From a virus, in IMG/VR virus record IMGVR_UViG_3300021400_000219, positions 121,970-139,573 of that record: DNA of 17,604 nt. One strand, 5' to 3'. Positions within the stretch are counted from its first letter, which is position 1, and the number at the start of each line of letters is the position of its first letter. Below are positions 4,399-17,374 of the stretch, in pieces. Both the position numbers and the translations under genes were made by a program. The notes under the pieces were generated by a model. That model was not told where the DNA came from and searched no databases. It saw nothing but the letters and a program-made list of their open reading frames with translations.

Positions 4399-4761
4399 TC
4401 AAATGTCCATGGCCTTGAAGTAGGTGACACGCTTGTCAACATACTTGTCAACCATGCCGTTGAGATACAGGGTGCGGAGCAGACCGCTCACCCGCTGGCT
4501 GGTAGCATCTGCCAGCTCAGGCACCCCAGCGCAAATCTCAGAGATGCGGAAACCCTTGTCCGAATCATCCCGCAGGAAATCCAGAATCTTGGAGCGAATG
4601 GCATCGTTTTCCACCTGCTTGGCGGAAGGCTTGCGCTCAGCCGTGGACTTCTTGGCAAAGCCCTCGGCAATCTTTTCCAGCTTCTCCCGCAGGGCAGTTT
4701 CCTCAGCAGGGACGAAAGTCAGGGCCATCTCAATAGCAGTCTTATTAGTCAGCTTAGTCAT
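4399..4761 (-). CDS. winged-helix-like small DNA-binding protein, paralog family 1 (subtype b)
   Basis: True start MTKLTNK at 4761; the track ORF extends through the promoter. The C-terminus GFRISEICAGVPELADATSQRVSGLLRTLYLNGMVDKYVDKRVTYFKAM is nearly identical to that of 9645..10019. Confidence 0.9.
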   Translation of the reverse strand: MTKLTNKTAIEMALTFVPAEETALREKLEKIAEGFAKKSTAERKPSAKQVENDAIRSKILDFLRDDSDKGFRISEICAGVPELADATSQRVSGLLRTLYLNGMVDKYVDKRVTYFKAMDI

Positions 4762-4830
4762 AGTATCACTCACTTTCTCCGTTTTAACGAGTTCGGCTCT
4801 CAATCTTTTGTTTTCCTTTACTGTACTTGT

Positions 4831-4859
4831 ATTATAGCACAGCTTGGGGAGTTTGTCAA
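4831..4859 (-). promoter_or_regulatory. sigma-A/70-type promoter (gene-proximal of a tandem pair)
   Basis: Minus TTGACA-N17-TATAAT (TGC-extended); its 5'UTR is conserved with that of 7440..7805. Confidence 0.75.
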
Positions 4860-4960
4860 GAGGTTTTGAAAACTTTTTTCGGATTATTTTACACCGACCA
4901 TTAACTCTCAAGGAGTGGCTCTCTTTCGCTCGCCGTCCCCAACCCCTCTTGACATTTATT

Positions 4961-5037: not shown

Positions 5038-5066
5038 TAGACAAGCGCATGTTTTTGTGATAAAAT
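5038..5066 (+). promoter_or_regulatory. plus-strand promoter facing a GC-rich island
   Basis: TAGACA-N17-TAAAAT (TGA-extended) followed by TAGTGGGGGG. Its -35 overlaps a minus-sense TTGACA (GTCAATAGACA, 5033-5043). Confidence 0.5.
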
Positions 5067-5072
5067 TAGTGG

Positions 5073-5150
5073 GGGGTCTGCGCGCGGCGGCACCGGCCGT
5101 TATCGGGACGCGCGTGTGTGTGCGTGTGTCGCTTTAAAGAGCTAAAGCGC
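5073..5150 (+). ncRNA. candidate small RNA / GC-rich island, copy C
   Basis: Starts downstream of promoter 5038-5066. Sequence GGGGGTCTGCGCGCGGCGGCACCGGCCGTTATCGGG...GCTTTAAAGAGCTAAAGCG, homologous to 14045-14135 and 16951-17045. Contains a 22-nt alternating purine-pyrimidine run at 5108-5129. The 3' end is unknown. Confidence 0.3.
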
Positions 5151-5170
5151 CCGGGAGAGTTAGCGAGGGC

Positions 5171-5458
5171 TTACCCCTCGCTCGTATCTACTCCCAGAAT
5201 AATCAACAGACTACAGATAGTGCCCCACGCATGGACGCCCATGTCCTCAGGGATTGCATCCCACACATCAGGATACAGACGGCGCACACCAGAGAGAAGC
5301 ATCCCGCCCCAGTTACCACCGCAAGCGGTACACAAGTCAAGGAAATCTTTAAAACTCATTTTAGTTTTCTGCGCCATGCACGCATAGACAACAACTTCAT
5401 CGCCCCACTCGTTCCGCACAGTATCAAGGGCTTCCATGAAATCAGAATGAAGAATCAT
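5171..5458 (-). CDS. hypothetical protein (95 aa)
   Basis: ATG 5458 overlaps the upstream stop as ATGA. Begins MILHSDFMEALDTVRNEW...; the stop is in the loop of AGCGAGGG/CCCTCGCT. Confidence 0.85.
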   Translation of the reverse strand: MILHSDFMEALDTVRNEWGDEVVVYACMAQKTKMSFKDFLDLCTACGGNWGGMLLSGVRRLYPDVWDAIPEDMGVHAWGTICSLLIILGVDTSEG

Positions 5459-7350: not shown

Positions 7351-7439
7351 TAGAAAATTGAAAAAAATTTAATGGAATTTATTCCCATTTACCCGGGCGC
7401 GTTAGCTGCTGCTAACTCTGGAAGAAAAAGGAAGGGGGA

Positions 7440-7805
7440 TTACTCCCCCTTCACCTGGAAGCGGCTGACCCGCTTCTCCACAACCTTCTCCACGGTTCCA
7501 GCTTCTACCAGCTGGCGCAGAAGGGCGGAAGCCTGCTGGCTGGAAGAGAGTTCCAGTTCGGCGGCTACTTCCTTCGCCTGCATAGGCTCGTGGTCAGTCA
7601 GCAGTTCAACGATGCGGGCCTTGATACCCTCGTTTTCAATCTGCTTCTTGGTGGGCTTGCGCTCGCCCTTGGACTTGGAAGCGTTCCGCTTCTCATAGCT
7701 GGCCTTGCAAGCAACCAGCTTTTCCATGGCTTCCTCGTTGAAGTCAGCGGGCAGGGAAGCAATAGCCATTTCCAGAGCCTTCACATAAGTCATCTTGTTA
7801 GTCAT
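7440..7805 (-). CDS. winged-helix-like small DNA-binding protein, paralog family 1 (subtype a)
   Basis: True start MTNKMTYVKAL at 7805. Collinear with 1714..2082 (EKLxACKASYxKRN..KGERKP.KKQ.ENEG..., ...ASALLRQ.VEAGTVEKV.EKR). The stop is in the GUAA loop of AAGGGGGA/TCCCCCTT. Confidence 0.9.
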   Translation of the reverse strand: MTNKMTYVKALEMAIASLPADFNEEAMEKLVACKASYEKRNASKSKGERKPTKKQIENEGIKARIVELLTDHEPMQAKEVAAELELSSSQQASALLRQLVEAGTVEKVVEKRVSRFQVKGE

Positions 7806-7879
7806 AGTATGCACTACCTTTCTCTGTTTTAACGAGTTCAGCTCTCAATCTGTTTTGTTCTTTCCCTTACTGTGGCTTT

Positions 7880-8588: not shown

Positions 8589-8649
8589 TACCTTTTTTCA
8601 AATTTTTTAATGGAATTTTTTTCCAGTTGCCCGGGCGCAGGAGTTAGCA

Positions 8650-8955
8650 TTAGCTAACTCCATTTTCTTCCAGACAAAATTCAAAACTCAAATCTTTTAC
8701 CACTTTTTGGGAAATGTATTCACGCACAAGGAAAAGCTCTAAATCTCTAGCCTGCTCCTCTACATAGCTACGGCGCAAATCGCGCACAGTGGAAAGATTT
8801 ACCATCGGGTATTCCATAGGATAACCACGCGCAACCACAATTACATTGTAAAGATTTTCCACGGGGTTCACCCTCATTCTCTTTTTCTTCTGGAATTTAT
8901 TGGTTTTATTGCGTTCAACTTTCGTTCTAAATTCTTTCATTTTTGCCTTGCTCAT
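8650..8955 (-). CDS. hypothetical protein (101 aa)
   Basis: Start MSKAKMKEF at 8955 overlaps the upstream stop as ATGA. The stop lies in the loop of the GGAGTTAGC-N4-GCTAACTCC hairpin (8640-8661). Confidence 0.8.
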   Translation of the reverse strand: MSKAKMKEFRTKVERNKTNKFQKKKRMRVNPVENLYNVIVVARGYPMEYPMVNLSTVRDLRRSYVEEQARDLELFLVREYISQKVVKDLSFEFCLEENGVS

Positions 8956-9644: not shown

Positions 9645-10019
9645 TTAAACCCCCTCACCCATGGCCTTGAAATAAGTAATGCGCTTATCTACGTACTTAT
9701 CTACCATTCCGTTCAGGTAGAGCGTCCGCAGAAGTCCGCTCACCCTCTGGGAAGTCGCATCGTTCAGAGCGGGAACACCTGCGCAGATTTCAGAGATACG
9801 GAAACCTCTGTCCACATCTTCCCGCAGGAAATCCAGAATTTCCGCACGGACGGCGTCGTTCTCTGCCTGCTTTGCGCTAGGCTTGCGGGGAGCGGTGTTC
9901 TTCTTAATGGCCTGTTCCTTCATCTTCTCCAGCTTTTCCACAACATCCGTCATGTCAGCGGGAACGTAGGACAGAGCAACTTCCAGAGCCTTAACAGTAG
10001 TCATCTTATTGGTAGCCAT
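9645..10019 (-). CDS. winged-helix-like small DNA-binding protein, paralog family 1 (subtype b)
   Basis: True start MATNKMTTVKAL at 10019. The stop is in the palindrome GGGGGTT-T-AACCCCC. Confidence 0.9.
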   Translation of the reverse strand: MATNKMTTVKALEVALSYVPADMTDVVEKLEKMKEQAIKKNTAPRKPSAKQAENDAVRAEILDFLREDVDRGFRISEICAGVPALNDATSQRVSGLLRTLYLNGMVDKYVDKRITYFKAMGEGV

Positions 10020-10073
10020 AGTATCACTCACTTTCTCTGTTTGTGGGGTTTATCAGCTCCCCTTGATGTATTA

Positions 10074-10891: not shown

Positions 10892-11341
10892 TTAAAGACC
10901 TCCCAGAACTTCAAGAATATTATTTACATCATAGGCATTTCCGCCTGCATTATTCCATTCAATTCTATTTCTTTCTTCATCATCAAACAGGATGCCGATT
11001 TCATTTACTACGGTACTTTTGGGGGTGCCATAGGAAACAATTTTCACATCATCAAAATGGACGCTTGCCAGATGTTTTTTTAACCACATCTTTTTTGCTT
11101 CTGTTACAACCTTGTTGTAATCGGGGTTATCTTCCTTAGAGAGCCAAGAGACAACACCAATTTTCCATCCAAGGGCCTGTAACTTGTTCAGCTTGTGGGC
11201 CAGCGCAGAAAGCCGAATCAGGGGTTTTGCGATTTCATAGGGAAGGGGATTTCTCTCAATTAGATAGGAGAGCCAATTTTCCACGCCATACAGATCGGCA
11301 ATAGTCCCATCCATGTCGAAATAAATAGCCTTGTTCATCAT
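10892..11341 (-). CDS. HAD-superfamily hydrolase, 5'(3')-deoxyribonucleotidase (NT5C)-like, paralog 1
   Basis: True start MMNKAIYFDMDGT at 11341 (or 11338). DMDGT is HAD motif I (DxDxT). Roughly 60% identical by eye to 15023..15487. Confidence 0.85.
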   Translation of the reverse strand: MMNKAIYFDMDGTIADLYGVENWLSYLIERNPLPYEIAKPLIRLSALAHKLNKLQALGWKIGVVSWLSKEDNPDYNKVVTEAKKMWLKKHLASVHFDDVKIVSYGTPKSTVVNEIGILFDDEERNRIEWNNAGGNAYDVNNILEVLGGL

Positions 11342-11389
11342 TCTGACCAACCCTTTCTTTAAAAGGTTTTTTATCTTTTCTGTATTATT

Positions 11390-11418
11390 ATAATACCAAA
11401 TTTTTTTATAAAAGTCAA
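11390..11418 (-). promoter_or_regulatory. sigma-A/70-type promoter, class C
   Basis: Minus TTGACT-N17-TATTAT (TGG-extended); perfect palindrome TTTGTGCAA-T-TTGCACAAA at 11442-11460. Confidence 0.65.
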
Positions 11419-11441
11419 TAGGGAATCGCAAATTTTAGAAG

Positions 11442-13498: not shown

Positions 13499-13540
13499 GG
13501 GTTTTTTCTTTTTTTTTTTTTGTTCCCGGAGGGCCGGGGC

Positions 13541-14007: not shown

Positions 14008-14037
14008 TTGACAGCCGAGCCTATTTTGTGGTATAAT
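14008..14037 (+). promoter_or_regulatory. plus-strand promoter facing a GC-rich island
   Basis: TTGACA-N18-TATAAT (TGG-extended); the upstream CATTTTTACTCTTGACA is conserved with 16916-16944. Confidence 0.6.
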
Positions 14038-14044
14038 ATTTCTG

Positions 14045-14171
14045 TACTGCCTGCGCGCGCGGTCGCCGGCCGTTAGCGGGGGCTAACTGTGCCTGGGTGT
14101 GCGCCTTTATTGCAATAAAGCACTAAAGTGCACAAGGGCAAAAAACTACGAGGATTTTTTAATCCTCGTAG
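14045..14171 (+). ncRNA. candidate small RNA / GC-rich island, copy A
   Basis: CTGCGCGCGCGGTCGCCGGCCGTTAGCGGGGGCTAAC...GTGTGCGCCTTTATTGCAATAAAG... running into hairpin 14146-14171, which is shared with the convergent minus-strand gene. Confidence 0.3.
14139..14171 (-). terminator. intrinsic terminator containing the stop codon
   Basis: Minus CTACGAGGATT-AAAA-AATCCTCGTAG followed by TTTTTTG; the stop of 14159..14290 lies in the loop. Confidence 0.75.
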
Positions 14172-14290
14172 TCAATGGCGATGACCTTCCAGCCCTTGGG
14201 CGGTTCGTAGTTTTCCGGCAGGCCCTTCCAGAGAATCAATTCAGTATCGGCCCACTCTCCATCAATCTTTCTGATTTCAATGCTCCACAT
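14159..14290 (-). CDS. hypothetical micro-protein (43 aa)
   Basis: True start MWSIEIRKIDGEW at 14290 after AGAAAGGA; the conserved 5'UTR is shared with 1714..2082 and 17067..17294. Confidence 0.6.
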   Translation of the reverse strand: MWSIEIRKIDGEWADTELILWKGLPENYEPPKGWKVIAIDYED

Positions 14291-15022: not shown

Positions 15023-15487
15023 TTACTTCCCTCTCGCCCATGTCAGAACGTCCATAATCATTTCAGGATTGAAGGCCCAACCTTCCATTTCTTCCCACTC
15101 AATCACATTGTTTTCTTCATCGTCAAACAGAATCCCATTTTTCACGGTGGGCACTGTGCTTTTGGGCGTCCCATAGGGAACAATGTTGATTTCATCAAAG
15201 TGAACGCTTGCAAGGTGTTTCTTGAGCCAATTCTTTTTGGCTTCAATAACCTTTTCGTCAAATTCCTTGTTGCTATTCTTAGCTAACCAACTAACTACCC
15301 CGATTGTCCATCCCTTTTTCTGAAGGTTATTCAACCGACGGGCAAGGGCGTTCATGTTTACCAGAGGCTTAGCAACTTCATAGGGGAAGGGATTGTTTTC
15401 CAGTAGATAACCCAGCCAGTTTTCTACGCCGTAGAAGTTGGCGATTGTTCCATCCATGTCAAAGTAGATTGCCCGATTGATTTTCAT
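15023..15487 (-). CDS. HAD-superfamily hydrolase, 5'(3')-deoxyribonucleotidase (NT5C)-like, paralog 2
   Basis: 154-aa ORF; AAAGGAG SD; contains YFDMDGTIA. The stop is in the GUAA loop of AGAGGGAA/TTCCCTCT (15015-15034). Confidence 0.9.
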   Translation of the reverse strand: MKINRAIYFDMDGTIANFYGVENWLGYLLENNPFPYEVAKPLVNMNALARRLNNLQKKGWTIGVVSWLAKNSNKEFDEKVIEAKKNWLKKHLASVHFDEINIVPYGTPKSTVPTVKNGILFDDEENNVIEWEEMEGWAFNPEMIMDVLTWARGK

Positions 15488-15518: not shown

Positions 15519-15546
15519 AGTATACCACAAATTCCGGGATTGTCAA
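15519..15546 (-). promoter_or_regulatory. sigma-A/70-type promoter (divergent partner of 15591-15619)
   Basis: Minus TTGACA-N16-TATACT (TGG-extended). GTCAAGAG (15543-15550) and CTCTTGAC (15588-15595) form a long imperfect palindrome. Confidence 0.7.
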
Positions 15547-15590
15547 GAGTTTTTTTCAAAAAAATCAAAAAACTTTTTTCAAAAAACCTC

Positions 15591-15619
15591 TTGACAAATT
15601 GAAAAAACTGTGATACAAT
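15591..15619 (+). promoter_or_regulatory. plus-strand promoter followed by a T19 tract
   Basis: TTGACA-N17-TACAAT (TGA-extended), then AAAGGGGGAATTA and T19. Confidence 0.6.
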
Positions 15620-15632
15620 AAAGGGGGAATTA

Positions 15633-15651
15633 TTTTTTTTTTTTTTTTTTT
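15633..15651. repeat. homopolymer T19 (A19 on the gene strand)
   Basis: Counted directly from the sequence. Confidence 0.95.
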
Positions 15652-15652
15652 G

Positions 15653-15688
15653 GTTAGCTTAGGCTAACTTAGGTTAGTATGTGCTAAC
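15653..15688. repeat. two TTAGC-type mini-palindromes
   Basis: GTTAGC-TTAG-GCTAAC (15653-15668) and GTTAG-TATGTG-CTAAC (15673-15688), followed by CCCGGGCG at 15691. Confidence 0.8.
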
Positions 15689-15705
15689 TACCCGGGCGCA
15701 AGAAA

Positions 15706-16026
15706 TCAGCCCTTGGGCTGATTCTCGCAAGCCTTTTTATTATTGTTCAGGGTTTTCATTAAAGACTTGGGGCACTTTTCGCAGTTGTGGCAATTCTTGT
15801 AAATGCTGATTCCCTGACTAACAGTTGCGATAAACATTGTTACCAGATTGTTAGTAGTTGCATTGTATACAATCACAATCCCCTTTTCAGTGAGAACAAC
15901 CTTGCCATCGTTGTTGTCGTAGGTTTCTGCGATTGCAGGCCCAAACTCGCCCTTGCAATAGTCGATGATGTAGGAAATTCTTTCCATCCTCTCAACCTTG
16001 GCGTGATAACTGACTTTCTTTGTCAT
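15706..16026 (-). CDS. hypothetical protein (106 aa)
   Basis: True start MTKKVSYHAK at 16026 after AAAAGGGG (the track uses an upstream TTG). The stop lies in the 3' arm of AATCAGCCC/GGGCTGATT. Confidence 0.85.
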   Translation of the reverse strand: MTKKVSYHAKVERMERISYIIDYCKGEFGPAIAETYDNNDGKVVLTEKGIVIVYNATTNNLVTMFIATVSQGISIYKNCHNCEKCPKSLMKTLNNNKKACENQPKG

Positions 16027-16915: not shown

Positions 16916-16944
16916 TTGACATTCGCTGTAAATTGTGGTAAAAT
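16916..16944 (+). promoter_or_regulatory. plus-strand promoter facing a GC-rich island
   Basis: TTGACA-N17-TAAAAT (TGG-extended) followed by AAAATGGGGAG. Confidence 0.6.
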
Positions 16945-16950
16945 AAAATG

Positions 16951-17076
16951 GGGAGCTGTTGTTCGCGCGCGCCGAAGGCCGTTAGCGGCCGCTAACCGGG
17001 TGTGCGTGTGCGCACCTTTATAGCTTTAATGGGTTAAAGTAACCGGGTAAAAAAGAGAAGGACTTTTCAGTCCTTC
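16951..17076 (+). ncRNA. candidate small RNA / GC-rich island, copy B
   Basis: GGGGAGCTGTTGTTCGCGCGCGCCGAAGGCCGTTAGCGGCCGCTAACCGGGTGTGCGTGTGCGCACCTTTATAGC... Includes the 16-bp palindrome GTTAGCGGCCGCTAAC (16981-16996) and a 16-nt alternating purine-pyrimidine run (17000-17015). Confidence 0.3.
17046..17076 (-). terminator. intrinsic terminator containing the stop codon
   Basis: Minus GAAGGACT-GAAA-AGTCCTTC followed by TCTTTTTTACC; the stop codon (17067-17069) spans the loop and the first base of the 3' arm. Confidence 0.75.
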
Positions 17077-17294
17077 ATCCCCATTTCTACGAAAACTTCA
17101 AAGCCTTCAAAGTAGTAAGTCCGCCATTCGCCTTCAAATTCAATTTCTTCCCGCTCCGCCATTTCAGACAGAACTACTTCAACTTCCTGCAAGGCCCGCC
17201 ATTCTGCAGCATCACCATCAAACCGAACTGCTACAACACCATCTTCAAACTCAACCTCAAAAGCTTCCAGCATTTCAAGAATCATTTCTAACAT
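17067..17294 (-). CDS. small extremely acidic protein (75 aa)
   Basis: ORF track; AGAAAGGAAA SD. 23 D/E versus 5 K/R by count. Confidence 0.85.
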   Translation of the reverse strand: MLEMILEMLEAFEVEFEDGVVAVRFDGDAAEWRALQEVEVVLSEMAEREEIEFEGEWRTYYFEGFEVFVEMGMKD

Positions 17295-17346: not shown

Positions 17347-17374
17347 AGTATAGCATAAATTCCCGGAAAGTCAA
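17347..17374 (-). promoter_or_regulatory. sigma-A/70-type promoter (divergent partner of 17433-17462)
   Basis: Minus TTGACT-N16-TATACT (TGC-extended). Confidence 0.7.

Follow-up and report, generated by a model that had tools for sequence, protein, structure and literature searches.

A reverse early promoter coupled to a hypervariable T homopolymer in the early-gene array of a TAG-recoded rumen phage

We have analysed a 17,604-nucleotide stretch of viral DNA (referred to below as the window; positions 121,970 to 139,573 of IMG/VR record IMGVR_UViG_3300021400_000219) in which two plus-strand promoters are each followed, within a few nucleotides, by a long and uninterrupted run of T's. The feature is real and hypermutable and its conservation extends over a single clade, and each unit is an inverted copy of the standard early-promoter cassette of the phage, a relationship missed by the original prediction that drew attention to these sites. 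The reading that we favour, with a probability of roughly 40% and on the strength of sequence comparisons, is that the unit is a self-limiting reverse early promoter at which host RNA polymerase would pause, slip and be released early. Slippage or pausing control and a poly-U RNA, both suggested at the outset, are compatible with the data; a nucleoid-exclusion role suggested alongside them finds no specific support.

The early-gene array and its cassettes

The early-gene array of a TAG-recoded rumen phage fills the window, and consists of densely packed small minus-strand genes, each with its own near-consensus and mostly TG-extended promoter. A promoter scan of the window returned 87 promoter-like sites where 32 were expected; about 40 of those on the minus strand are strong. 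Read in the direction of the array, a cassette runs from a hairpin through a CGCCCGGGCG box, a short inverted repeat and an A/T-rich UP-like region to the -35 and -10 elements, the inverted repeats being of the form TGGAA..TTCCA, GTTACA..GTTACA or TGTGCA..TGCACA (for example at 1665-1689, 7392-7416 and 8630-8658). Many of the array-direction hairpins precede CGCCCGGG and not a U tail, the T-rich tail being on the opposite strand. The palindrome GTTAG-N6-CTAAC occurs 13 times in the window against 0.01 expected.

Beyond position 17604 the window is flanked by late-type genes (positions 1-7000 of contig L063) with many in-frame TAG codons, 13 of them in a 584-aa gene and 9, 4 and 3 in the genes beside it, and the phage therefore recodes TAG; in the early genes TAG never serves as sense. 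Other stop-codon-recoded phages have been described and serve for comparison (10.1101/2021.08.26.457843, PMC9523058). Larger contigs of the same phage derive from rumen metagenomes. Megablast of the window against known phages gave no match, and it is by its predicted proteins that the window is recognised as phage DNA: they include an NT5C-like deoxyribonucleotidase and a 295-aa exonuclease-like protein that is about 40% identical to proteins encoded by 140-kb Enterococcus phages. The lineage appears to be Herelleviridae-like and not T4-type. The Firmicute-like promoters, the SD sequences and the Enterococcus-phage homologs hint, indirectly, at a host of Gram-positive type.

Several other features of the array are of note in their own right. 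At 14008-14175, 16916-17085 and 5038-5200, and possibly at 1075-1290 (all on the plus strand), further reverse consensus promoters are each followed by the non-coding unit that they drive, GC-rich and about 120 nt long. These share a fold made of a long GCGCGCGC...GCGTGTGC stem, an inner GCCGTTAGCGGC and a CTTTA..TAAAG hairpin, are conserved in contigs L090, L091 and L093 and have no Rfam match; they are a candidate phage sRNA family. Four paralogous small minus-strand genes (1714-2082, 4399-4911, 7440-7814 and 9645-10031; repeat families D9-D11) have a winged-helix-like C-terminal part and are candidates for putative binders of the palindromic boxes. Between 12560 and 12990 lies a non-coding repeat field of about 430 nt, with three GTTAG-N6-CTAAC palindromes at 20-nt spacing, TTGTGCA/TGCACAA palindromes, GTAAC repeats and paired CTAAAG/CTTTAG, besides runs of T8 and T7; it has the look of an iteron/operator field, or else of a large ncRNA. 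Positions 400-950 form an AT-rich island (22% G+C) with promoter-like repeats of another type (TTGATT..TATAAT) and several T7-T8 runs.

Anatomy of the two units

The elements of unit 1 and its surroundings are as follows.

15023..15487, minus strand: NT5C-like 5'(3')-deoxyribonucleotidase gene (PHROG 2643, E 6e-13; Pfam NT5C just under the cut-off), driven by the array promoter back-to-back with unit 1
15519..15546, minus strand: array-direction early promoter, TTGACA-16-TATACT, TG-extended
15547..15590, no strand assigned: A/T-tract-rich UP-like spacer, common to both divergent promoters and conserved at all orthologous loci
15591-15619, plus strand: unit 1 reverse promoter, TTGACA-17-TACAAT, 11/12 with TG (-35 TTGACA 15591-15596; TG 15611-15612; -10 TACAAT 15614-15619)
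15620-15632, plus strand: unit 1 initial transcribed region, AAAGGGGGAATTA; a G run of 3-6 is retained in every variant
15633-15651, plus strand: T19 tract, hypervariable, T10-T26 across this locus in relatives
15653..15688, plus strand: two GTTAG-N6-CTAAC palindromes/hairpins, directly 3' of T19
15691..15698, no strand assigned: CCCGGGCG box, recurrent in intergenic cassettes
15699..15745, plus strand: long hairpin, then UUUUAUUAUU; overlaps the 3' end of the convergent 106-aa gene
15706..16026, minus strand: 106-aa gene, convergent with unit 1

Those of unit 2, at the far end of the window, are the following.

17067..17294, minus strand: gene for a 75-aa acidic protein, driven by the array promoter back-to-back with unit 2
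17347..17374, minus strand: array-direction early promoter, TTGACT-16-TATACT
17433-17462, plus strand: unit 2 reverse promoter, TTGACT-18-TACAAT, 10/12 with TG
17463-17474, plus strand: unit 2 initial transcribed region, GAAGGGGGATTC
17475-17499, plus strand: T25 homopolymer; T30 in the 174-kb scaffold L058, T15-T20 in relatives
17503..17521, plus strand: hairpin GGGTTG-CGCAAAC-CAACCC, 3' of T25; L058 instead has GGTTAGCGCAAGCTAACC
17534..17561, minus strand: terminator hairpin and U tail of the upstream gene, which is cut by the window end

Promoters were judged by a -35 near TTGACA, a spacer of 17+/-1, TGn and a -10 of the form TAnnnT, which is the sigma-70/sigma-A consensus. Predicted extended -10 promoters of this kind are present in units 1 and 2 and in all orthologs, and the unit 1 reverse promoter is kept in 15 contigs. 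The plus-strand promoters claimed in the original prediction equal in quality the approximately 40 array promoters that the scan found in the same phage. The common string that it had described for the two units, TGTGATACAAT-(A/G)AAGGGGGA-(A)TT(A/C), is correct, and the units are homologous, with a start region RAAGGGGGA.TT conserved in both between the promoter and the T tract. From the usual spacing of about 7 nt to the -10, the start site of unit 1 is predicted to lie in the G run at about 15624-15627. The minus-strand promoters said to stand back-to-back with the units are present (15546..15519 and 17374..17347), as are the hairpins 3' of both tracts. The coordinates given for the first tract (T19, 15633-15651) are borne out by the sequence, while those given for the second (T26, 17475-17500) are off by one, position 17500 being an A and the tract T25; the difference in length between the two copies, T19 versus T25, stands. 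A chance origin of the tracts is ruled out by 1000 shuffles of the window, in which the longest T run averaged 8.1 and never exceeded 13.

Tract length and conservation among assemblies

Independent assemblies of this phage, or of one almost identical to it, were recovered through exact-protein look-ups, and a look-up with the 106-aa protein added ten contigs from other studies, in all ten of which (10/10) unit 1 lies directly after the 3' end of the gene for that protein. Comparison with related genomes had been proposed as a check on the feature, and gives about 25 instances of the module in independent metagenome assemblies with T runs of 10-30. The lengths are continuous over this range and the runs are pure across some 400 T positions, except for T8-A-T8 in one distant relative (L066). 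Tract 1, which is T19 in the window, is T20 in L058, T17 in L062 and T10, T12, T13, T13, T15, T16, T19, T22, T23 and T26 in the ten further contigs. Tract 2, with T25 in the window, has T30 in L058, and unit-2-like copies have T15, T17, T18, T20, T25 and T30. Other versions of the module have T20 (L099 and L100, from two separate runs), T12 (L108) and the interrupted run of L066.

The unit 1 intergenic region of about 250 nt differs by at most 6% outside the tract, and T17, T19 and T20 are found on identical flanks. The AAAAGGGGAATTA haplotype always has T12-13, and because length follows the flanking haplotype in this way we take tract length to be inherited and not sequencing noise. Five of eight contigs of the near-identical strain end inside a tract, and the lengths read at contig ends are unreliable. 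That the tracts are an artefact of assembly or sequencing, for which these contig ends might speak and which the original prediction named as an outcome that would undo it, is extremely improbable and is refuted as to their existence, as the tract, with its flanks conserved, is spanned in more than 20 assemblies made in different studies and with different assemblers, T20 was obtained in two separate runs (L099, L100) and length tracks the flanking haplotype.

In all instances the T run is on the non-template strand of a reverse-oriented promoter and starts 10-15 nt past the -10, behind 3-6 G's; in most, a GTTAG-N6-CTAAC palindrome lies within a few nucleotides 3' of the tract. The sequence 3' of the tract differs among unit 1, unit 2, L058, L099 and L066, and the elements common to all versions are the promoter, the G run and the T run only. 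As only these are shared between the units, they are presumably the functional part. Conservation of the flanks carries little weight, because most of the instances are closely related. Relatives at 75-84% identity lack the unit, it is absent from 29 more distant NT5C-linked loci that were searched, and IMG/VR pattern scans for the exact unit gave no match. Homopolymers of at least 12 are otherwise very rare, with four runs in 1 Mb of related loci; three of those four (all with a visible promoter in their flanks) are directly upstream of a -35.

Over the 12.5 kb that lead up to tract 2 the window matches L058 at 99.8% identity, and right beyond the tract window positions 17500-17604 and L058 are unrelated, with a different upstream cassette. 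As the near-identity stops there, we place a recombination junction at or in tract 2. A 1869-bp contig, L064, is exactly the tract-to-tract segment. Its k-mer coverage is 56.7 versus 37.3 (1.5x) for the 136-kb main contig L059 (ERZ1756080), an excess that could reflect duplication, sharing between strains or a mini-circle like those of the PeSL elements discussed below.

Known element types that the units do not match

Neither tract is followed by an ORF, whether code 11 is used or TAG is read as sense, and any reading frame would be displaced as the tract changed in length. A second scan of the window, in which TAG was taken as sense, added no plausible gene near the tracts. An ATG over the -10 of unit 2 can be set aside as a start codon, being ATA in unit 1 and most orthologs. 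The search of Rfam gave no match at gathering score and chance-level matches only at E up to 5, and a tRNA/tmRNA search of the window found none.

An intrinsic terminator is rejected, as there is no hairpin ahead of the U run; the hairpins follow it, and what precedes it is about 5-10 nt of G-rich RNA. A terminator scan found none at the tracts, and in the predicted folds the 5' segment is single-stranded or finds its partner only far downstream. The IMG/VR matches to ACAAT..GGGGGA..T8 proved to be ordinary terminators of unrelated phages, of the form CCCTC-loop-GGGGGAT8. An A/T tract that acts as an UP element would lie at about -40 to -60 relative to its promoter; T19 and the -35 of the array promoter are separated by about 87 bp and by a whole promoter, and this reading too is rejected. 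Unlike T19 and T25, the T13 at 13509-13521 and its T16-T18 orthologs do occupy the UP position, and T23 in L016 is directly upstream of a -35. The T13 run, which is A13 on the array strand and directly upstream of the -35 of an array promoter, has orthologs of T13-14, T16 (L106) and T18 (L101), and forms a second, separate class of variable homopolymer.

SPO1-type middle promoters have a -35 of AGGAGA, a spacer of 17-18 bp and a -10 of TTTNTTT. Reading AGGGGGA as such a -35 and the tract as the -10 fails, since in the T10-T16 alleles the -10 would fall outside the tract. The length variation is that of a contingency locus, with T17, T19 and T20 on identical flanks and T10-T26 on flanks that diverge by at most 6%, but the position is not, as the tract is downstream of the -10 and outside any ORF. 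The hypervariable switch of the original prediction, in its classical promoter-spacer or in-ORF form, finds no support in a tract that begins past the predicted start.

Control of the pyrBI/codBA/upp type is rejected, with the T run 10-15 nt past the -10 and no downstream ORF under either code. In the comparison with pyrG, a G run of 3-6 is kept at the predicted start, the pairing that it would make with the U tract is all G.U, and there is no terminator hairpin. A programmed slippage site within a gene is rejected, for the run is at least 9 long but there is no ORF. The NusG pause motif TTNTTT is matched on the non-template strand in every register of the tract. A scan of the window for a trans target of the G5-U(n) segment found none besides its own antisense. 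The module stands outside every family tested, and appears most like a promoter-proximal pause, slippage or attenuation element.

A proposed self-limiting reverse promoter

A plausible explanation of these observations is that the unit limits its own transcription. Host RNA polymerase would start in the conserved G run and, after about 5-10 nt, meet the pure T run of the non-template strand, where the template that it copies has only A's. Once 9-10 U's had been made the whole hybrid would be rU:dA, the weakest RNA-DNA hybrid, and able to slide in register. In a host of Gram-positive type the T-rich non-template signal would be present in every register and would cause pausing with or without NusG, and a polymerase with an RNA of about 15-20 nt, an all-U hybrid and no hairpin in its exit channel would pause, slip and often release. 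The products would be short heterogeneous RNAs with a G start and oligo-U, and little antisense would be made across the convergent upstream gene. Only a length of at least about 10 would count, and replication slippage would be free to alter the tract between T10 and T30. Possible uses are a head-on block of read-through from the upstream cassette, or an influence on the back-to-back early promoter.

The self-limiting model fits the rule of strand and position, the lower bound of 10, the indifference to length beyond it and the lack of a conserved downstream RNA. The shortest uninterrupted tract, of 10, is approximately the length of one RNA-DNA hybrid. Several points stand against the model. 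It gives no account of what the phage would gain from a promoter whose transcripts are for the most part aborted. A U tract with no hairpin ahead of it makes E. coli-type polymerase pause but is not an efficient terminator. In L066 the shorter, interrupted tract leads into about 190 nt of structured-looking non-coding sequence, which argues for a read-through RNA there.

The individual steps have precedents. In Gram-positives there is NusG-dependent pausing at non-template TTNTTT (PMC9963633), and NusG is a termination factor (PMC8060035). C. difficile RNA polymerase is reported to pause more strongly with more T's in the -9..-1 window (PMC13174505). Transcriptional slippage on A/T runs is documented (PMC1088944), and in reiterative transcription the RNA slips on its template (PMC8812562, PMC7039003).

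Alternative explanations

It is possible, though not probable, that the RNA itself is what matters. On this reading the unit would make an abundant small RNA with a single-stranded segment consisting of a G start and U(10-30+), perhaps lengthened by slippage, which would serve either as a sponge for U-binding host proteins (Hfq, cold-shock proteins, S1, PNPase) or pair through A-U and G.U with the purine-only leaders and SD segments of mRNAs. The tract is transcribed as U and never as A in every instance, and other reverse promoters of the phage drive structured non-coding units in which a G run is followed by a U/C-rich stretch. Stable hairpins follow the tract, and on the plus strand of unit 1 there is a terminator-like hairpin/U tail that would give an sRNA-like product of about 115 nt, the hairpin at 15699..15745 being the likely 3' end of any read-through RNA. 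The array strand has 26 purine-only runs of at least 12 nt, many of them in mRNA leaders and SD regions, and the predicted fold of unit 2 pairs the U run with a GGGGAAAAGAGAAAAGG stretch. However, the units have no downstream sequence in common, unit 2 lacks a plus-strand terminator, and the window contains no complementary A-run/UCCCC target beyond the antisense strand. Pairing made entirely of G.U and A-U would be weak, an early-type promoter would make the RNA simultaneously with the leaders that it was to block, and no binding protein has been identified. The more specific proposal that the module is a dedicated generator of short 5'-triphosphate, G-start oligo/poly(U) RNAs acting as host-takeover effectors, whether as a sponge for U-binding RNA chaperones/nucleases or as a degenerate antisense to the purine-only leaders, is decidedly unlikely. 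In that case the strong promoter would send polymerase onto a slippery all-A template, and the length and purity of the tract would serve this end.

We consider it unlikely that the tract is a neutral microsatellite, that is, the slippage-expanded T-rich leader of an orphan promoter and SD cassette that was inverted by shuffling and lost its gene. The unit does read as a promoter, an SD-like AAAGGGGGA and a T-rich spacer where a start codon would be expected; cassettes are shuffled among relatives with breakpoints at these intergenic modules, length varies freely, and the unit is missing in relatives at 75-84% identity and in more distant ones. Against this, T>=10 or T8-A-T8 is kept in at least four versions of the module whose spacers and start regions have diverged (unit 1, unit 2, the L099 type and the L108/L066 type). 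Among about 24 instances there are no alleles contracted below 10 and no interruptions, in a phage group in which long homopolymers are otherwise very rare.

Very unlikely, in our view, is a role at the level of the DNA. The tract might be a poly(dA:dT) element beside a promoter, rigid or easily unwound, that belongs to a transcription-activated origin or priming site; it might mark a boundary from which proteins are excluded; or its microhomology might make it a preferred place for the exchange of cassettes. The transcription-primed origins of T7 and T4 (oriF/oriG) combine a promoter with a downstream A/T element, an architecture that the unit matches, and the tract adjoins GTTAG-N6-CTAAC palindromes that resemble protein sites. 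The end of the 99.8% identity between the window and L058 at tract 2 would suit an exchange hot spot, and the tract-to-tract contig at 1.5x coverage recalls PeSL mini-circles (PMC2839356). An rU:dA hybrid is nevertheless the worst choice for a persistent R-loop, and the tract is between convergent transcription units, where positive supercoiling opposes unwinding. A boundary or recombination site would need no strict coupling to a promoter in one orientation, and replication genes were not found nearby.

Comparison with known systems

The closest parallel to the arrangement of the cassettes is with the PeSLs of T4-type phages (PMC2839356), in which a repeated sigma-70-like early promoter and a stem-loop are placed between small non-essential genes and cassettes are shuffled between relatives with breakpoints in the cassettes, as for the window and L058 at tract 2. 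Shuffling of this type is seen here too: the cassettes fall into repeat families D1-D8, and the same intergenic module can be followed by different downstream genes. The present phage differs in being Herelleviridae-like and TAG-recoded and in having the extra CGCCCGGGCG and GTTAG-N6-CTAAC boxes, and PeSLs have neither a reverse promoter nor a long homopolymer. Full membership is rejected, the phage not being T4-type and many of its hairpins preceding CGCCCGGG and not a U tail.

Dense small early genes with their own host-type promoters are also found in the SPO1 host-takeover module and the early regions of Herelleviridae (PMC6873191, PMC7414437), but the homology is distant, at about 40% aa identity for one protein. 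With the reiterative transcription of pyrBI, codBA, upp and pyrG (PMC8812562, PMC7039003) the unit shares a homopolymer near the start, and its G run resembles that of pyrG; the known cases, however, involve 3-4 identical bases in the first few nucleotides and control a gene in cis, whereas here T10-30 starts at about +5 to +10 with no gene following. With NusG and T-rich pausing (PMC9963633, PMC8060035, PMC13174505) it shares T-rich non-template DNA inside the bubble, but the known signals are 6-nt motifs, usually with an RNA hairpin, in the leaders of real genes, and not T10-30 runs behind an orphan promoter. Phase-variable contingency loci have in common with the unit a hypermutable mononucleotide run that differs in length among near-identical genomes, but here no ON/OFF length rule is evident and the run is outside promoter spacer and ORF. 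An intrinsic terminator likewise has a U run and weak rU:dA, and differs in that here the hairpins come after the tract. We know of no promoter-proximal poly-T module described in the early regions of SPO1 or other Herelleviridae.

Implications

The early array contains two paralogous NT5C-like deoxyribonucleotidase genes on the minus strand (10892-11431 and 15023-15487). In SPO1- and PBS-type phages, such deoxyribonucleotidases accompany the replacement of thymine in the DNA, and if the present phage does likewise, the tract read as T may consist of a modified base in the virion. On the practical side, short-read assemblies of phages in this group fragment at the tracts.

A compact phage genome seldom contains long homopolymers, which come at a cost. 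Here they are tied to a consensus promoter in a fixed orientation; as the module duplicated and diverged they have remained pure and have not fallen below 10 nt, although their length is free to vary. If the product is poly-U RNA, it would represent a new type of host-takeover RNA, a phage non-coding effector encoded by a homopolymer. If, as we favour, the unit is a promoter-proximal stop that needs no hairpin, it would be a test bed for hybrid stability and NusG-type pausing in Firmicute polymerases, for how phages control antisense transcription in promoter-dense arrays, and for how early regions are assembled by the shuffling of cassettes.
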